DNA of 64,000 nucleotides from Bordetella parapertussis (lineage in GTDB: Bacteria > Pseudomonadota > Gammaproteobacteria > Burkholderiales > SG8-39), in contig CAMAXP010000004.1 of NCBI GenBank assembly GCA_945862265.1, forward strand, positions 36,118 to 100,117, given 5' to 3'. Each line of letters begins with the position of its first letter. Positions within the stretch are counted from its first letter, which is position 1. The notes under the pieces were generated by a model. That model was given only the letters and a program-made list of their open reading frames with translations. It was not told where the DNA came from and did not search any database. Position numbers and translations under genes: made by a program. Shown one piece after another: positions 16,738 through 57,517 of this stretch.

Positions 16738-16775
16738 AAACGCGAAGCCCCGCAACGTGCCGGGGCTTCGCGTTT
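16738..16775. terminator. strong hairpin, candidate bidirectional terminator
   Basis: aaacgcgaagccccg-(8 nt loop)-cggggcttcgcgttt forms a 15-bp perfect stem. It lies between the convergent czc operon end and the stop of the 16804..19359 gene. Confidence 0.7.
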
Positions 16776-16803: not shown

Positions 16804-19359
16804 TCAGAACGACGGGCCGTTGGTCGCCAGTGCCGTTGCCGTACCACCTTTGCTCGACTGCACCACCACCGAGGTCGGCTTGAGCCGGGCGGCATCTCCG
16901 GGAATTTTGGTCACCGGTAATTGCCAGCACGGGCTGGCCACCGAGCACTGCACCGTGCCAATCACCCGCGGACGACGACGGGCATCGTTGGCCTCCAGGA
17001 GCAGATCGATCGGGATCGTCACGCGACGCATCGCGGTCTGCGGCAATATGATGTTGTGGTTATTGAAACCCGTCACAAACAGTGCGGGAACCGGGCCACT
17101 AGGCTGCGAGGTTTTGGCCACCACCATGAGCCCGCGGTTACCGCCAAACGTAGTCCAGGTCACACCCTCAACGGTCACGGTATCGGCTGTCGCCACCGGC
17201 GTCACCACCGGCACCGGCGGCGGTGCAATCACCGGCGTCACCACCGGCACCGGCGGCGGTGCAATCACCGGCGTCACCACCGGCACCACCGGCGGATTGC
17301 GCGGCGCCGGCGCTGCTGCCAGCAGTTCCGCCGGCATGCAGGCACCGTTGCGCAGCACCAGCGGGGCCGAACACACCTGCGGCGCCACCGTTGCCGCACA
17401 ACTGCCGGTGCTTGAAGCGCAGAAGGTCTCTGCCGGCGTCACTGCCACCGCGAAGGTCGGCGGATCCATCGGCGGCCAGGCCAGTACGCTGGCATTGCCG
17501 TTGAAATCCACGGTGCCGCCCACCGGCGTCACAAAGGACAGGATGCGGTTGCGCGCATCGCTCAGCGGCGCTGCGGTGAAACGCGGGTCGTTGTACGGGC
17601 CGGTCGGCAGGGTGCGTGCCTGCAGGCGCGGATCCACCCCTTCGAAGGGATACGGGTCCAGCGGCTGCGGGGTCGGTTCGCAAACGCCATCCTTGCAACC
17701 GCCGGGGCTCAAGCGACGGTCCAGCGTCCAGGGCAGGCCGGTGAACTGGTGGGGCCAGGCCATCTTGGTCAGGTCGAACTCATTGAATTCCGGGAAACCG
17801 ACACCGCCAAGATTGACACCCAGCGGCACCAGGTACTCGCCATTGGTCGCCGGTGCGCCCTTGATGTCCACCGTGGTCGGCGTGAAGCCGGCGGCCAGCG
17901 CGGCCAGCCGGTGTCCGGTACGGGCAATGATTTCGCGCGGCATCGGACTGACGATGGCCAGCTGCTCGGCAATCGAACCGGCCGGCGTGCTCTGGTTGAC
18001 CGGACAGAATTGGGCGGGATTGCCGAAACGCGGTTCGGCCCGCAGATTGCTGCAAGGGTTATCCGTAACATCCTGTGCGCCAACGTCAAATTGGACGTTG
18101 TAACGGATTTTCCAGATATAGCCGCCGACGCCGGGGACGAGGCCGTTGGCGCTGCAGTCCCCCTCGCCACCGACCACGTCGCAGGCGAGCACCGAAGCCC
18201 AGGGCTTCTCGACACGGCTGTTGGTGACCGGATCATAGTGCAGGGTCCACAGCAGGACATCGGGCCGCAGCGTCGAAAAGCCGATCAGCAGCGTGCGGGC
18301 GCGCAGGTTCTCGTAGCCGGGGGCGTCCTGCTCCACTTCTTCCGGCATCACGTAGTCGGGCTGGCTGAGATTCTGCCGCGTCTCCAGCGCGATCTCGGTG
18401 ACCGAACTGTGGAAGGACAGGAAACGCACGCCGTTGACGGTCTCGAAGTTGCCCACGAGCTTGATCTCATCACCAAGCCGGATCGGCGCCATGAAGCGCG
18501 AATCATTGACCAGGCCGCTCGGCGTGACCGGGCGGTTGGTATCAAGGCACAGTACATCCCCACGTGCGGGGTCGAGCGCGCCCGACTGCGCAAGCTGCGC
18601 GGGTACCGCGGGCGAGAAGTTCGGATCTGCCGCATTGGCGCCCTGCGCCGGCAGACCGGCAAAAGGCCGCGCCACCCGGCTGGGAATGCACATCGGAAAG
18701 CCGTTCACCGCGGTGTTGGTGTAGTTGTCCGGGTCGTTGGTAAAACGCGGGTCAGCACTGCAATTGGGACTGCCGGCAACACAGCCGAGACCCTGCTGCA
18801 CGGTGTGGCGCGACGTGGGATCGTTCATCCGCGCCATCATGCCGACATTGGGATCGCCGAGAATGCCGTTGATGCGCAGGTAGCTCTCATCATGATTGAT
18901 GTAGGTCACTGCGCCGGTGACCACCTCCTGCCCCTTGTCGATCAGCATGTCGCCGGCAATGATGTTGCCGCCGTTGGTGCGGTTGGCGGCAATGCTGGCG
19001 TAGCCGCCGGTGCCCGTGGTGTTGCAGCGGTCGGTGCTGGTCAGCCCGGTCTCGCCCAGGGCCTTGCACGCCGCCGAGGCCTGGTCGAACAACTGCCACA
19101 GCGTCAGCCGGTTGGCCGGCAGGTCAATCAGCAGGTTGCGCGGGATGGTCACGTACTGCCCGCTGATCACCAGTGTGCCGGCGGACCAGTAATCGCCCGG
19201 CGTGGTCAAGGTGATGCGCGAAATCTCGCCGCTGATCGACACCGAGGTCGCGGCCTGCGCCGCCATCGGGGTCAGCGCAAAACCTGTCGCCATCAACAGG
19301 CCGAGGGCTGCCGCGGTTTTGCGCGCACTACGCAGGTATGGGATTGGTTTGGAAAACAT
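16804..19359 (-). CDS. uncharacterized secreted cysteine-rich protein, paralog 1 (851 aa)
   Basis: ORF 16804..19413. The ATG at 19359 is preceded by an AAGGAAA RBS and gives signal peptide MFSKPIPYLRSARKTAAALGLLMATGFALTPMAAQA. It has 18 Cys, a Pro-rich linker and a conserved C-terminal module. Collinear with the upstream paralog. Confidence 0.85.
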   Translation of the reverse strand: MFSKPIPYLRSARKTAAALGLLMATGFALTPMAAQAATSVSISGEISRITLTTPGDYWSAGTLVISGQYVTIPRNLLIDLPANRLTLWQLFDQASAACKALGETGLTSTDRCNTTGTGGYASIAANRTNGGNIIAGDMLIDKGQEVVTGAVTYINHDESYLRINGILGDPNVGMMARMNDPTSRHTVQQGLGCVAGSPNCSADPRFTNDPDNYTNTAVNGFPMCIPSRVARPFAGLPAQGANAADPNFSPAVPAQLAQSGALDPARGDVLCLDTNRPVTPSGLVNDSRFMAPIRLGDEIKLVGNFETVNGVRFLSFHSSVTEIALETRQNLSQPDYVMPEEVEQDAPGYENLRARTLLIGFSTLRPDVLLWTLHYDPVTNSRVEKPWASVLACDVVGGEGDCSANGLVPGVGGYIWKIRYNVQFDVGAQDVTDNPCSNLRAEPRFGNPAQFCPVNQSTPAGSIAEQLAIVSPMPREIIARTGHRLAALAAGFTPTTVDIKGAPATNGEYLVPLGVNLGGVGFPEFNEFDLTKMAWPHQFTGLPWTLDRRLSPGGCKDGVCEPTPQPLDPYPFEGVDPRLQARTLPTGPYNDPRFTAAPLSDARNRILSFVTPVGGTVDFNGNASVLAWPPMDPPTFAVAVTPAETFCASSTGSCAATVAPQVCSAPLVLRNGACMPAELLAAAPAPRNPPVVPVVTPVIAPPPVPVVTPVIAPPPVPVVTPVATADTVTVEGVTWTTFGGNRGLMVVAKTSQPSGPVPALFVTGFNNHNIILPQTAMRRVTIPIDLLLEANDARRRPRVIGTVQCSVASPCWQLPVTKIPGDAARLKPTSVVVQSSKGGTATALATNGPSF
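17194..17287. repeat. 36-bp tandem repeat, ~2.6 copies, inside a coding region
   Basis: Unit caccggcgtcaccaccggcaccggcggcggtgcaat occurs at 17194-17229 and 17230-17265, with a partial copy at 17266-17287. It encodes the repeated VTPVIAPPPVPV linker on the minus strand. Confidence 0.9.
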
Positions 19360-19424
19360 GGGGTTTCCTTGCTCGGAATTGAAGTTCAGGGCAGCGCTGC
19401 GTGTATGGTTCATGGCGCCCCCGA

Positions 19425-21950
19425 TCAGAACGATTGATTATTGGTGGGCAACTGCGTCGCGGTGCCACCCTTGCTCGACTGCACCACCACCGAGCTTGGT
19501 TTGACGTTGCGCGGTAATCTCACCAACGGATTTCCGTTGAGATCGAACGGCAATTGCCAGCAGGGATCCGCTACCGAGCACTGCACCGCGCCGACGTCGG
19601 TGGCAATGGGCGCCACCGACCGAATCATCCTGGTCTGCGGCAGCAGCACATTGGCGCCGTCAAACGCGGTGACAAACAGATCGGGGACCGGTCCGGCAGG
19701 CTGCGAGGATTTGGCAATCACCCGCAGGCCGCGCAGACCACCGATCGGCACCCACATCACACGGCTGATGGTCACGGTATCGATGGTCGGCGGCGTCACC
19801 GGCGGGGTGACAGGCGGGGTCACTGCCGTGGTAAAGGTTGGCGGTGCCGGCGGTGCTTCGGCAGCCACCGTAATCAGCGCCTGCACGCAGGAACCGTTCT
19901 GCAGCACCAGCGGCGGCGTGCACCCGGGCGGCGCCACCGGCTGCATGCAGCTGGTGTTGCCGGGGGCAGCGCCCTTGGCGCAATAGGCGATCTGCGGCGT
20001 AACGAGGATCGGCAGCGCATCCGGATCGGCAGGGGGCCAGGCGAGCACGCTGGCATCGCCGTTGAAGTCATACACCGCGGGCTCGGCGGTGCCGATGCGG
20101 GTCATGTGGGACAGGACGCGGTTGCGCACATCGCTCAGCGGTGCCGCGGTGAATTTCGGGTCGTTATAGAGGCCGACCGGAATATTCTCCGCCTGGGTGC
20201 GCGGATCGAGGCCTTCGAAGGGATAAGGGTCGAGCGGCTGCGGGGTGGTCTCGCAACCATCCTTGCAACCACCGGGGCTCAGACGCCGGTCGAGGGTCCA
20301 CGGCATCGAGGTAAAGAAGAACGGCAATGCGGTCTTGGTCAGGTCGACTTCCGCCATCTCCGGCATGCCGATACCGCCGAGGCCGCCCATGCCGAGAATG
20401 CCGTTGGCAATCGGGAACAGGTATTCGCCGTTGGTCGCCTTGTTGCCGCGGATGTCCACGGTCACCGGCTCGTAGCCGGCGGCACGCGCCGCGAGCAGAT
20501 GCCCGGTACGCATGATGATTTCACGCGGCAGCGGGCTCAGTACGCCGAAGATATCGTTCAGTGATGCCGCCGTTGCGCTCTGGTTGTTCGGGCAGAAACT
20601 GTTGCCCAGACGTGCATCGGCACGCATATGGATGCAGGGATTCCCGCGTTCACGCGCGCCCGAGAGGAAGTCGAGGTTGTAGCGCAGTTTCCAGATGTTG
20701 TTGCCAACGCCTGCGACAAGACCATTGTTCAGTCCGCAGTCGTTGCCGGCACGTGTCACCAGATCGCAACCCTTGGTGGTGCCCAGCGGTTTTTCGTGGG
20801 GCAGGTTCTGCTCCGGGTCATAGTGCACGGTCCAGAACAGCACGTCGGGCGGCAGCGTCGAGTAGCCGATGAACAGGCCGCGGATGCGCAGGTTGTTGAA
20901 GCCCGGGGCATCGAGTTCAATTTCATCCGGATACAGATAGTCGGGCTGGGTCAGCGCGGTCTTGGTGGCAATCGCCACCGAGGTGGTCGATGTGTGGAAA
21001 GACAGGAAGCGCACGCCGTTCACCAACTCATAGCTGCCCTCCAGCTTGATATGGTCGCCGACCTTGATCGGCGCCATGCGCCGCGAATCGGCAACGGGTG
21101 TATTGGGCAATGCCGGACGATTGGTCTGCGGGCACAAGGCATCACCGTTGGCGGGATTCGCGAGGCTGGCGCGGGCCGTACCACCGGCCACTGCCGCAGA
21201 GGCATCCACGCCGGCACCCTGTGCCGGCAGGCCGGCCCAGGTCCGCGCCACCCGGCTGGGGATGCACATCGGATAGCCGGTGATTGAAGCGTTGGTATAG
21301 TTGTCGGGATCGTTGCCGAAGCGCGCATCGGGGCTGCAGTTTTCGGATCCGGTCGCGCAGCCGAGGCCCGCCTGGATGGTGTGGCGCGAACTCGGATCGT
21401 TCATCCGTGCCAGCAGGCCGGTACCCGGATCCACCGTCGATGTCGCCGGAACGACCGGCGTACCGTTGATGCGCAGATAACCGTCGGTATGGTTAATGTA
21501 GGTCACCACCCCGGAAAGACCCTCGCGCCCCTTTTCCAGGAACAGGTCGCCGGCGATGACATTGCCGTTGCGCGTACGGTTGGCGGCGACAAAAGCAAAG
21601 CCGCCCTTGCCGCTGGTGTTGCAGGTATCGGACTTGGCCAGACCGGTCTGCCCCAGCGCCTTGCAAGCCGCGGGCGCCTGATCCACCAGCTGCCACAGCG
21701 TCAGCCGGTTCGCCGGCAGATCCACCAGCAAGTTGCGCGGGACGATGATCGACTGGTTGCCGACTACGATGGTGCCGCCCGACCAGTAATCCCCGGGGGT
21801 AGTCAGCGACAGGTGCTGAATCTCTCCGGAGATCGGTGCAGCGGTTGCGGCGCCCGCTGGCGCGGCTGGCGTTGCTGTCGCGAAAAGCGCAAGCGCGGCC
21901 AACAGCCGTCCAGCGTCCTGTGCGAGTTGATGAATGCGTAAGGTTTTCAT
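19425..21950 (-). CDS. uncharacterized secreted cysteine-rich protein, paralog 2 (841 aa)
   Basis: ORF 19425..21989. The ATG at 21950 gives signal peptide MKTLRIHQLAQDAGRLLAALALFATATPAAPAGA. The same 18 Cys positions and motif string as paralog 1. Confidence 0.85.
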   Translation of the reverse strand: MKTLRIHQLAQDAGRLLAALALFATATPAAPAGAATAAPISGEIQHLSLTTPGDYWSGGTIVVGNQSIIVPRNLLVDLPANRLTLWQLVDQAPAACKALGQTGLAKSDTCNTSGKGGFAFVAANRTRNGNVIAGDLFLEKGREGLSGVVTYINHTDGYLRINGTPVVPATSTVDPGTGLLARMNDPSSRHTIQAGLGCATGSENCSPDARFGNDPDNYTNASITGYPMCIPSRVARTWAGLPAQGAGVDASAAVAGGTARASLANPANGDALCPQTNRPALPNTPVADSRRMAPIKVGDHIKLEGSYELVNGVRFLSFHTSTTSVAIATKTALTQPDYLYPDEIELDAPGFNNLRIRGLFIGYSTLPPDVLFWTVHYDPEQNLPHEKPLGTTKGCDLVTRAGNDCGLNNGLVAGVGNNIWKLRYNLDFLSGARERGNPCIHMRADARLGNSFCPNNQSATAASLNDIFGVLSPLPREIIMRTGHLLAARAAGYEPVTVDIRGNKATNGEYLFPIANGILGMGGLGGIGMPEMAEVDLTKTALPFFFTSMPWTLDRRLSPGGCKDGCETTPQPLDPYPFEGLDPRTQAENIPVGLYNDPKFTAAPLSDVRNRVLSHMTRIGTAEPAVYDFNGDASVLAWPPADPDALPILVTPQIAYCAKGAAPGNTSCMQPVAPPGCTPPLVLQNGSCVQALITVAAEAPPAPPTFTTAVTPPVTPPVTPPTIDTVTISRVMWVPIGGLRGLRVIAKSSQPAGPVPDLFVTAFDGANVLLPQTRMIRSVAPIATDVGAVQCSVADPCWQLPFDLNGNPLVRLPRNVKPSSVVVQSSKGGTATQLPTNNQSF
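19789..19824. repeat. 12-bp imperfect tandem repeat x3 inside a coding region
   Basis: ggcggcgtcacc / ggcggggtgaca / ggcggggtcact encode VTPPVTPPVTPP in the linker of paralog 2. Confidence 0.8.
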
Positions 21951-22050
21951 GGCCGACCCCGGTATGACTTCCGAAAAAACGAGTGTCATAAAAATCGGAT
22001 TCGCGGACGTGGCTGAAAGGTCTTTAAACCGTCAACTTGAGTCGTCGGGA

Positions 22051-22066: not shown

Positions 22067-22248
22067 GGAAGCCTTACAAAGAAGGAAACACAAAAAAGGT
22101 GTCCGTGCGCCAGCTGGCGAGGAGCCCCGTGGCTATCTTCTGGAACCGGATTCTGCTGGAAGAGATGTTTTCCAACCTTGTGGACAACGCGATCCGGCAT
22201 ACCCCTGATTCCGGGCGGATCGGGGCGGAGCGGTCGCTTACACCCTAG
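22066..22248 (+). pseudogene. sensor histidine kinase remnant (HATPase_c N-box only)
   Basis: The short open frame reads ...ARSPVAIFWNRILLEEMFSNLVDNAIRHTPDSGRIGAERSLTP*. The LxxxxxNLxDNAxxHTP N-box is present. There is no HisKA, G1 or G2 box, and the frame is truncated at both ends. Confidence 0.65.
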
Positions 22249-22315: not shown

Positions 22316-22621
22316 ATGGAAACGCCGGTCCGTTGGTCGTTGAAAGTTTCGCGGGAAACCGACGAGGCGTTGCGCGAGCACCTCGGTCGCTCGGGTGGCC
22401 GCAAGGGCGACATGTCCAGGTACGTGCAGGAAGCGGTCAATGCACGGCTTAAGGCGGAGGCGGCTCCTTCCGGAAAGCCGGAAATGCCCGCCAAGGCCGG
22501 CACGAGGGAGGGGCTGGCGGAGGCGCTCGTCGAGATCAGGGCGCGAACAGGCGCGCTTTCGAAGGCGCGCTTCGAGAAACTGGTGACCGAGGCGGTGGCC
22601 TACGCGCGTAAGCGCCGCTGA
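22316..22621 (+). CDS. ribbon-helix-helix (CopG-like) antitoxin
   Basis: AAAGGAG RBS. The N-terminal strand-helix-helix pattern is VRWSLKVSRETDEALREHLG...MSRYVQEAVNARL. It is followed 3 nt later by a PIN gene. Confidence 0.7.
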   Translation: METPVRWSLKVSRETDEALREHLGRSGGRKGDMSRYVQEAVNARLKAEAAPSGKPEMPAKAGTREGLAEALVEIRARTGALSKARFEKLVTEAVAYARKRR

Positions 22622-22624
22622 GCG

Positions 22625-23035
22625 GTGCTCGTCATCCTCGATACGAATGTCCTCCTGAGCGCACTGCACGCGCAGAGCGGCCCGCCGGCGAAAATTCTGG
22701 ATGCGTGGCGAGACGGACGCTTTGGTCTGGCGACGAGTTCCGAGCAGATCGAGGAATTCAGGCGCGCGGCGCGTTACCCGAAACTGCTCCCTTACCTGCC
22801 GCGTGGCGCGGTGGGCCGGATGGTCAACGATCTGCGGGCTGCGGAAGTCTTGCTCGAGCGGCTGAGGCGCGCGGGCGACGCTCCCGACCCGGGCGACGAC
22901 TACTTGCTCGCCATGGCGCTCGCCGCCGGCGCGGATTTCCTGGTGACCGGGGACAAACCCCTGCTGTCGGTCAAGTGCGTGGGGCACGCGCAGATCATTT
23001 CGCCAAGCCGTTTCGCAGCCATGCTGGCCGGCTAA
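22625..23035 (+). CDS. PIN-domain toxin (TIGR00305-like)
   Basis: GTG start. VLVILDTNVLLSAL...SSEQIEEF...DDYLLAMALAAGADFLVTGDKPLL carries the conserved acidic PIN residues. Confidence 0.8.
   Translation: MLVILDTNVLLSALHAQSGPPAKILDAWRDGRFGLATSSEQIEEFRRAARYPKLLPYLPRGAVGRMVNDLRAAEVLLERLRRAGDAPDPGDDYLLAMALAAGADFLVTGDKPLLSVKCVGHAQIISPSRFAAMLAG

Positions 23036-56083: not shown

Positions 56084-57517
<1,434 letters not shown>

Follow-up and report, generated by a model that had tools for sequence, protein, structure and literature searches.

We analysed a stretch of 64,000 nucleotides from contig CAMAXP010000004.1 (assembly GCA_945862265.1, positions 36,118 to 100,117 of the forward strand), hereafter the window, with emphasis on two tandem minus-strand genes, A (19425..21950) and B (16804..19359). 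The two genes appear to be co-transcribed and to encode exported paralogues rich in disulfides, of 841 and 851 amino acids, respectively. Rather than as a unique pair, A and B are best seen as two representatives of a family that is widespread, uncharacterised, and associated with copper oxidases. This family is defined by a core of approximately 610 amino acids and is named CORE here, with CORE1 as its main subfamily. It was found that CORE genes are recurrently linked across phyla to genes for IoxA-like multicopper oxidases (MCOs), SCO1 proteins, and MbnH/MauG-like dihaem enzymes. We tentatively propose that CORE proteins serve extracytoplasmic copper-oxidase systems as accessory partners, most likely non-catalytic and comparable to the IoxC and IoxE proteins of iodide-oxidising bacteria, and that A and B may fill a copper-related envelope role unlinked from an oxidase. 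It is gene context alone that ties the family to copper-oxidase systems.

Copper-oxidase gene neighbourhoods of CORE relatives

The loci of relatives were compared through open reading frame (ORF) clustering and BLAST over the fetched loci, and partner genes were counted within 10 kb at 68 loci. From this comparison, MCO genes were found at 18 of the 68 loci, SCO1 genes also at 18, and MbnH/MauG-like dihaem genes at 16. At least one of the three was present at 27 of the 68 loci, and the figure was 16 of 24 among loci flanked by 5 kb or more on each side. The IoxA-like MCOs in these clusters are three-domain proteins of 555-660 amino acids.

Several gene orders illustrate this linkage. Methylobacter luteus carries the order MCO, SCO1/cytochrome c, CORE1. 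A longer block was noted in Polaromonas jejuensis, where type II secretion system (T2SS) genes, an MCO, SCO1, CORE1, two further MCOs, a 789-aa family member, and an 819-aa MbnH/MauG-like dihaem protein were encountered in this order. Equivalent same-strand blocks were found in Crenothrix, Methyloglobulus, Methylococcaceae, Nitrospira, Betaproteobacteria, Deltaproteobacteria, and Chloroflexi. The Paraburkholderia cluster consists of T2SS genes, a homologue, a RoxA/MauG-like dihaem enzyme, a second homologue, an MCO, SCO1/cytochrome c, and a DUF5666 protein, together with a TonB receptor. Two consecutive blocks were seen in Nitrosomonas supralitoralis, the first comprising an MCO, SCO1, and an unrelated 832-aa protein, and the second an MCO, SCO1, and a 575-aa CORE homologue.

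A mechanism may be outlined for such systems. The A and B proteins would be made from one transcript, exported through the Sec pathway, and oxidatively folded, and, by analogy with IoxC, the conserved core would then act outside the cytoplasm, binding either the oxidase or its metal or substrate. The variable C-terminal modules (Ig-like, fn3, SLH, or the module of approximately 120 amino acids) could anchor the complex at the cell surface. Within the freshwater Burkholderiales clade of A and B, the pair was found to be separated from oxidase genes, standing either behind genes for the copper-storage protein Csp1 and two further proteins (X1 and X2) or beside a divergent two-component system. 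The A-B pair of this clade may act in copper-linked envelope or extracellular redox chemistry.

Secreted MCOs are responsible for the oxidation of iodide, manganese, and phenolics in aquatic and soil environments, and we know of no explanation for the requirement of the best-studied iodide oxidase for another large protein, IoxC. In methanotrophs, nitrifiers, soil Acidobacteriota, and freshwater Betaproteobacteria, CORE genes accompany those for MCOs, their copper chaperones, and MbnH-like haem enzymes. If the family is the missing partner class, it would offer a handle on the assembly, anchoring, or metal supply of extracellular copper enzymes, and it would merit its own Pfam/NCBIfam model. 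If it is not, it still constitutes a large and strongly constrained exported family.

Two sets of loci encountered in this comparison are recorded as side observations. On Rhodobacterales plasmids (Fuscovulum and Limimaricola), the MCO-SCO genes occur with T2SS genes or a MopA-like peroxidase; at two such loci (L094:16904-19737 and L095:1585-8490), the IoxA-like MCO-SCO genes adjoin very large "peroxidase family" proteins and type I or type II secretion genes, a layout that resembles MopA-type Mn-oxidation loci. On one metagenomic contig, a homologue of a putidacin L1-like lectin-type bacteriocin (NF033557, below the cutoff; L088:4951-6324) is encoded between a MauG-like gene and a 641-aa CORE1 member.

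Spread, conservation, and architecture of the family and the pair

We sought relatives of A and B at several levels. A first homologue search returned 456 proteins, and a genome scan gave 77 loci from at least 8 phyla. In an exhaustive phmmer search with matches clustered at 50% identity, 474 clusters passed E<=1e-3, of which 167 also passed E<=1e-30. The phyla of the family include Proteobacteria, Nitrospirota, Acidobacteriota, Chloroflexota, Actinomycetota, and Methylomirabilis. Family members are more than 45% identical across phyla, and in the first homologue search the N-terminal residues (approximately 620) were more than 47% identical in Proteobacteria, Chloroflexota, Acidobacteriota, Nitrospirota, Methylomirabilis, and others. 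The C-termini vary across the family and carry fn3, Big_9/cadherin-like, Ig-like, Big_2, PKD, or SLH modules, or none, with the core-only members measuring 640-700 amino acids.

In an alignment of 35 CORE1 sequences, 12 of the 18 cysteines were found to be invariant along with many polar residues. The residues invariant across the whole superfamily, listed for the core of A, are N184, D185, P186, R189, D208, R210, D214, N217, C273, D299, H319, Y338, C453, Y510, W551, and the stretch L573-P577. While H190 and H376 are invariant within CORE1, H319 is the only histidine that is invariant superfamily-wide. Both W56 and W551 are invariant in the family alignments. The distant subfamilies, comprising the 575-aa Nitrosomonas/Pseudomonas proteins, the 789-aa Polaromonas protein, and the 803/805-aa Paraburkholderia proteins, retain this superfamily-wide subset of the residues invariant in CORE1.

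The closest orthologues come from related freshwater Burkholderiales metagenome-assembled genomes (MAGs). Orthologues of A at 88-95% identity were found at four loci (L003, L006, L008, and L009), and orthologues of B at 81-94% identity at six (L003, L006, L007, L008, L012, and L013), with the A-then-B tandem order kept at L003, L006, L007, L008, L012, and L013. In a neighbour-joining tree, the A clade and the B clade are sisters, and the duplication is therefore older than these species. On the question whether such genes always stand in tandem, which had been raised from the sequence alone, the A-B order was thus conserved among the orthologous loci and predates the divergence of the species. 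The ratio of nonsynonymous to synonymous substitution rates (dN/dS) among orthologues was 0.11-0.15 for A and 0.15-0.22 for B, which indicates that both genes are under purifying selection. The sequence-only reading had held that frequent pseudogenisation of homologues would argue against a function, and no systematic pseudogenisation was seen. In one long-read MAG (L012:4172-12803), the X1/X2 genes and the A orthologue are split into many short ORFs while the B orthologue is intact; these splits are more likely assembly frameshift errors than pseudogenes.

The searches for a known family or fold were then considered. Pfam-A and NCBIfam returned no family at E<=1 for A or B, and among these curated models no adhesin, autotransporter, RHS, lectin, or other family was matched at this threshold. 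Neither phmmer nor the 35-sequence profile found a match for the core among all PDB sequences. The only weak PDB profile match (E 0.054) was to an fn3 domain and fell in the variable C-terminal part of the family profile. An AlphaFold model of the full-length protein reached a predicted local distance difference test score (pLDDT) of 73.5 and gave only Ig-like or OB-like fragments in Foldseek. It was superseded by a core-only AlphaFold model built on 96 sequences, with a mean pLDDT of 87.3 and a predicted TM-score (pTM) of 0.88. In a Foldseek comparison of this core model with the PDB, no match was obtained at E<=0.001; the best had an E of 0.065, and query-normalised TM-scores were at most 0.11. 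The core of A and B is thus modelled as mostly beta, with no solved structural relative detectable by the PDB searches used. A kinship of the N-terminal beta-barrel-like domain with DUF5666, a protein of which is encoded in the Paraburkholderia cluster, was also tried and was rejected at an hhalign probability of 0.3%.

It was noted that these results bear out the absence of a known family, in that the profile searches and Foldseek of a confident model, checks of the kind that the sequence-only reading had called for, and the PDB sequence searches gave no full-length family or structural match. A and B belong to no annotated family but are members of a large cross-phylum one and are not isolated.

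At the level of the genes, the ORF list of the window contains minus-strand frames at 19425..21989 and 16804..19413. Starts at 21950 for A (MKTLRIHQ...) and at 19359 for B (MFSKPIPY...) give lengths of 841 and 851 amino acids, which match the closest homologues. The two proteins are 56% identical (67% positives) over 837 amino acids by BLASTP, a value inside the range of half to two-thirds that had been estimated by eye. Each has exactly 18 cysteines, and their positions are collinear, in agreement with the earlier count; the conserved motifs quoted at that time were all present in the translations. The cysteines appear to be paired as sequential neighbours, a spacing that would fit disulfides rather than Cu(I) ligands.

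The spacer between the genes measures 65 nt (19360..19424, minus strand) and has a Shine-Dalgarno-like AAGGAA 6 nt ahead of the B start. A terminator scan of this spacer found no terminator-like site, and with the coordinates this agrees with the initial description of same-strand genes 65 nt apart in a terminator-free arrangement. An 11-bp GC-rich hairpin (16742..16771) lies between the convergent ends of gene B and a P-II-like gene and is likely the end of the A-B transcript; since its T-run is just 3 nt, it would be a weak intrinsic terminator. A scan for sigma-70 promoters upstream of A found nothing. It was also observed that the G+C content over 18001-22000, which covers both genes, falls to 0.635-0.644, compared to 0.67-0.71 in the neighbouring efflux operon and most of the window.

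The predicted proteins share one architecture, consisting of a signal peptide, the core, a Cys/Pro-rich linker, and a C-terminal beta module. The signal peptide of A covers approximately residues 1-34 (21849..21950, minus strand), with the h-region LLAALALFATA and an APA/AGA cleavage region near residues 32-34, and that of B covers residues 1-36 (19252..19359, minus strand), with cleavage after ...TPMAAQA and before ATS, that is, at AQA|A at residue 36. Read by eye from the translations, each N-terminus combines a basic n-region and a hydrophobic h-region with a cleavage site of the AXA type, as the initial assignment of Sec-type signal peptides had it, and residues 1-31 of A have a pLDDT below 50 in the full-length model. 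The conserved core comprises residues 37-645 of A (20016..21842, minus strand) and approximately residues 39-640 of B (17440..19245, minus strand). The boundaries in A were drawn from family alignments and the AlphaFold model, in which the core is mostly beta with 12 invariant cysteines, and those in B from BLASTP against A and the family alignment.

The linker of A (residues 646-721; 19788..20015, minus strand) holds four cysteines, arranged as two short loops, and then a (V/P)TPP repeat, and its pLDDT is below 50. The linker of B (17179..17439, minus strand) likewise has four cysteines, followed by a VPVVTPVIAPPP repeat. At the DNA level, these correspond to a 12-nt tandem repeat of 3 copies in A (19788-19823) and a 36-nt tandem repeat of 2.8 copies in B (17194-17295, 96% match), so that the proline-rich repeat linker described earlier is made of real tandem repeats in both genes.

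The C-terminal module of A, a beta-sandwich of approximately 120 amino acids with one Cys pair (19428..19787, minus strand), ends in ...VVVQSSKGGTATQLPTNNQSF, and that of B (16807..17178, minus strand) ends in ...SSKGGTATALATNGPSF. The sole weak Foldseek matches of the A module were Ig-like folds. By hhalign, the A/B module was found to be related to the C-terminus of the 789-aa Polaromonas family member (96% probability), and a C-terminal module common to A/B and X1/X2 or a Skermanella protein was rejected at probabilities of at most 1.5%. All members of the A/B clade (P0003-P0037; 16807-16830 and 19428-19451 in the window, minus strand) end in ...SSKGG.AT....N..SF/GF with a C-terminal Phe. 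This conserved tail could be a sorting or anchoring signal.

Neighbourhood of the pair in the window and in its closest clade

The genes beside the pair were examined in the window and in its relatives. An efflux operon encoding an outer membrane efflux protein (OEP), a CzcB-like adaptor, a CusA/CzcA-type resistance-nodulation-division (RND) protein, and a P-II-like protein is convergent with the pair. The P-II-family gene (PF00543; 16366-16701, plus strand) and the RND gene overlap by 4 nt at the stop codon of the latter, an arrangement that would suit a fourth gene of the operon. None of the OEP, adaptor, RND, or P-II genes was found beside the pair at L006, where A is 95% identical, or at any other related locus, and we treat the Czc-type efflux operon as a chance neighbour. 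This answers in the negative the question whether homologues always stand near czc genes. Of the metal link that had been suggested from the window, one part stood, as copper genes recur beside the relatives, and the other did not, as the Czc-type operon is not a conserved neighbour. No secretion, modification, or immunity genes were found beside the pair in the window, as had been stated from the outset.

On the other side of the pair, a histidine-kinase remnant of 30 codons (22129..22218, plus strand) was identified by tblastn (E 5e-5) against the kinase upstream of the L008 pair. Its 30 residues match the HATPase_c end of that kinase, and the kinase remnant named in the sequence-only reading is thereby confirmed. 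Both L008 and the P0003 contig have intact genes for an OmpR-type regulator and a histidine kinase, oriented divergently and placed directly upstream of the pair; the P0003 contig in addition gave a faint CusF-like match nearby. A heavy-metal type was considered for this two-component system and rejected, given that its best NCBIfam matches (TctD, PmrA, and QseC) were all below their cutoffs. A toxin-antitoxin-like pair of a ribbon-helix-helix (RHH, PF16762) and a PIN (PF13470) gene was observed at 22316-23035 (plus strand). The L006 locus carries this module too, at 97-99% identity, and in both the window and L006 it stands in place of the two-component system of the relatives.

L006 (CAMAWC010000094.1) comes from a lake MAG and is the closest relative of the window; its gene content and scan neighbours are those of freshwater Burkholderiales, and the label "Bordetella parapertussis" that it bears looks wrong on that account. 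Elsewhere in the window, a SAH riboswitch (RF01057; 57544-57625, minus strand) scored 67.8 bits against a gathering score of 37. It lies just upstream of a 477-aa ORF (56084-57517, minus strand), presumably an adenosylhomocysteinase.

Within the closest clade, the loci L003/L004, L012, and L084/L085 share the order hybrid kinase, Csp1, X1, X2, A orthologue, B orthologue. The Csp1 copper-storage protein was assigned by TIGR04401 with a score above the cutoff. The X1 and X2 proteins represent a second unannotated family of approximately 850 amino acids, predicted to be exported, with 11-12 cysteines and the N-terminal motif LQRVGPVD..HG.P.WYQD. Genes of this X family were located at L003:1815-7098 (X1 and X2), L084:1702-7002, L063:4339-6483, and L093:11385-13241. 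The N-terminal domain of X1/X2 has a homologue (E 5e-13) in the protein whose gene follows MCO-SCO on the Skermanella plasmid pSM-3, and an X-family gene adjoins CORE1 and a dihaem gene in a Nitrospirae MAG.

Alternative readings and comparison with known systems

Several observations weigh against a role of CORE proteins as partners of copper oxidases. By tblastn, MCO, SCO1, MauG-like, and Csp genes were absent from the 64-kb window, and the freshwater Burkholderiales clade of A and B lacked MCO linkage at the examined loci. The genomes showing the Csp1 linkage are close relatives, and they may have inherited the arrangement just once. Many loci, including those of Pyrinomonadaceae and a Pseudomonas putida locus, had no copper genes within 10 kb. 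The association was also not strict from the side of the oxidase, as the slot after MCO-SCO1 holds a non-CORE protein in Skermanella and in the first Nitrosomonas block, and no CORE gene was found with MCO-SCO in Fuscovulum, Limimaricola, or a Comamonadaceae plasmid. No binding or catalytic site was identified, all functional inference being drawn through gene context, and the likeness to IoxC/IoxE is one of gene position, size, and taxa. A bolder version of the same idea, which we regard as doubtful, is that CORE proteins are extracytoplasmic redox or metal proteins of a new fold class, with a protein-derived cofactor or metal site installed by the neighbouring MbnH/MauG-like dihaem enzyme and SCO1. 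They would partner IoxA-type MCOs in an undescribed cross-phylum system of extracellular oxidation, of which A and B would be a copper-regulated, oxidase-independent offshoot in freshwater Burkholderiales. The substrates of such a system might be halide, Mn(II), Fe(II), or organic compounds.

An intriguing question is whether CORE proteins carry a chemistry of their own. A and B could be stand-alone secreted enzymes, probably oxidoreductases, with an active site formed from the invariant polar residues, the MCO as redox partner, and possibly a protein-derived cofactor installed by the MbnH/MauG-like dihaem enzyme of the relatives. The conservation is unusually strong for an extracellular protein (>45% across phyla, with dN/dS of 0.11-0.22), the N-D-P-x-x-R motif, D208, R210, D214, N217, H319, Y338, Y510, and W551 are invariant, a dihaem gene adjoins in 16 of the 68 loci, and the methanethiol oxidase encoded with SCO1 and MauG genes offers a precedent (PMC5739008). 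However, no catalytic motif, Pfam/NCBIfam match, or PDB fold match to any enzyme was obtained, the MauG-like gene is absent from the window, and just one His is invariant across the superfamily, and we consider this reading unlikely. Equally improbable in our estimate is that A and B are extracytoplasmic copper binders or acquisition proteins like MopE, CorA, or MbnP, which would pass copper to Csp1, SCO1, or cuproenzymes from a mononuclear site including a Trp oxidised to kynurenine by a partner dihaem peroxidase. Such a role would accord with the presence of a MauG-like dihaem gene beside that of a secreted protein, as in corA-corB and mopE with its peroxidase (PMC3912023), with the invariant W56, W551, and H319, with SCO1 adjoining in 18 of the 68 loci and Csp1 adjoining in the closest clade, and with the prevalence of the family in copper-hungry methanotrophs and nitrifiers. 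Yet A and B are poor in His (0.8-1.3%) and Met (1.7-1.9%), their Cys spacing seems to suit disulfides and not Cu(I) ligands, no dihaem gene lies near them, and no sequence or fold similarity was found in the PDB, although it includes the structures of MopE* and CorA.

The beta-rich architecture and the absence of a catalytic signature would also suit structural cell-surface proteins or adhesins without a metal or redox role, as would the Pro-rich linker with length-variable repeats and the C-terminal modules of the family (Ig-like, fn3, cadherin-like, Big_2, PKD, and SLH). The ligand-binding domains of adhesins usually diverge fast, whereas the CORE core is >45% identical across phyla and under strong purifying selection, and a generic adhesin would not be expected to be linked repeatedly, across unrelated phyla and on the same strand, to MCO, SCO1, and dihaem genes; this explanation appears quite improbable. 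Least credible of all is the suggestion of the sequence-only reading that the pair is a Zn/Co/Cd or envelope-stress factor of the adjacent Czc-type efflux operon. It drew on the position of the pair beside the OEP/CzcB-like/CusA-CzcA RND/P-II-like operon, with the kinase remnant upstream, but the operon is convergent and not co-oriented with the pair, it is missing beside the pair at L006 (A 95% identical) and at every other related locus, and the two-component system of the relatives is not of the heavy-metal type by NCBIfam (TctD and PmrA, below cutoffs).

Genes for SCO1 and MauG accompany that of a copper-dependent methanethiol oxidase (PMC5739008). In Pseudomonas putida GB-1, the mnxG and mcoA Mn-oxidase operons encode a secreted MCO with SCO1/SenC chaperones and accessory proteins (PMC11409713). 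The CORE loci share this combination of secreted MCO, SCO1/SenC, and accessory proteins. The accessory genes of GB-1 (YVTN beta-propeller, SurA-domain, and cytochrome c-domain binding proteins) differ from CORE, by annotation only, and the Pseudomonas member of the 575-aa subfamily was not next to an MCO at the one locus seen.

MopE, CorA, and MbnP bind copper at the cell surface or in the periplasm with the help of a kynurenine ligand and are partnered with MauG-like dihaem peroxidases; for the surface proteins MopE and CorA, a peroxidase of this kind, co-transcribed with them, is believed to produce the kynurenine (PMC3912023). Their mononuclear copper site comprises two His plus the kynurenine, and the conserved residues to set beside it in CORE are H319 across the superfamily, H190 and H376 within CORE1, and W56 and W551. 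Similar to MopE, CorA, and MbnP, CORE comprises secreted, beta-rich proteins encoded beside MbnH/MauG-family dihaem genes, methanotrophs included, in a copper-related gene context, and conserved Trp and His residues are present. In contrast, no sequence or fold similarity was found by phmmer, profile, or Foldseek searches against the PDB, and CORE proteins are 3-4x larger than CorA, with 12-18 cysteines. The dihaem partner gene, present in 16 of the 68 loci of relatives, is absent near A and B.

A parallel in layout is offered by Iodidimonas and Roseovarius, whose extracellular iodide-oxidising enzyme contains the MCO IoxA (62 kDa) and, co-purifying with it, IoxC (71 kDa), a protein of unknown function (PMC9415286). 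Its cluster has the order ioxA-ioxB(SCO1)-ioxC-ioxD(SCO1)-ioxE-ioxF(SCO1), with gsp genes on the flanks (PMC9415286). There are differences, in that neither an oxidase gene nor SCO1 accompanies A and B within the 64 kb of the window, and unlike in the iox model, the third slot may hold unrelated proteins, as in Skermanella and with the 832-aa protein of Nitrosomonas. A and B are predicted to be exported, as IoxC/IoxE-type proteins are, from their signal peptides and Cys pattern, and clustering with an IoxA-like MCO and SCO1 was not found for them by tblastn in the window. Neither Iodidimonas nor Roseovarius was among the matches listed in the first homologue search or for 20 family representatives, an IoxA-like MCO, and the Nitrosomonas 575-aa protein. 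In the blocks of other genomes, CORE relatives occupy the same slot, on the same strand directly after an IoxA-like MCO of approximately 60 kDa and SCO1, as IoxC and IoxE do in Iodidimonas sp. Q-1 and Roseovarius sp. A-2, and the MCO size (555-660 amino acids) also agrees with that of IoxA. IoxC/IoxE and CORE are alike secreted proteins of unknown function with no annotated domains, and the 71 kDa of IoxC approximates the size of the core-only CORE members (640-700 amino acids). T2SS genes lie near the MCO-SCO1-CORE blocks in some genomes, as the gsp genes do near iox. Relatives of IoxA have been described in Gammaproteobacteria and Nitrospirae (PMC9415286), and Nitrosomonas is reported to carry homologues of ioxA and ioxC (PMC12335899); these taxa are the ones in which MCO-CORE clusters were found.

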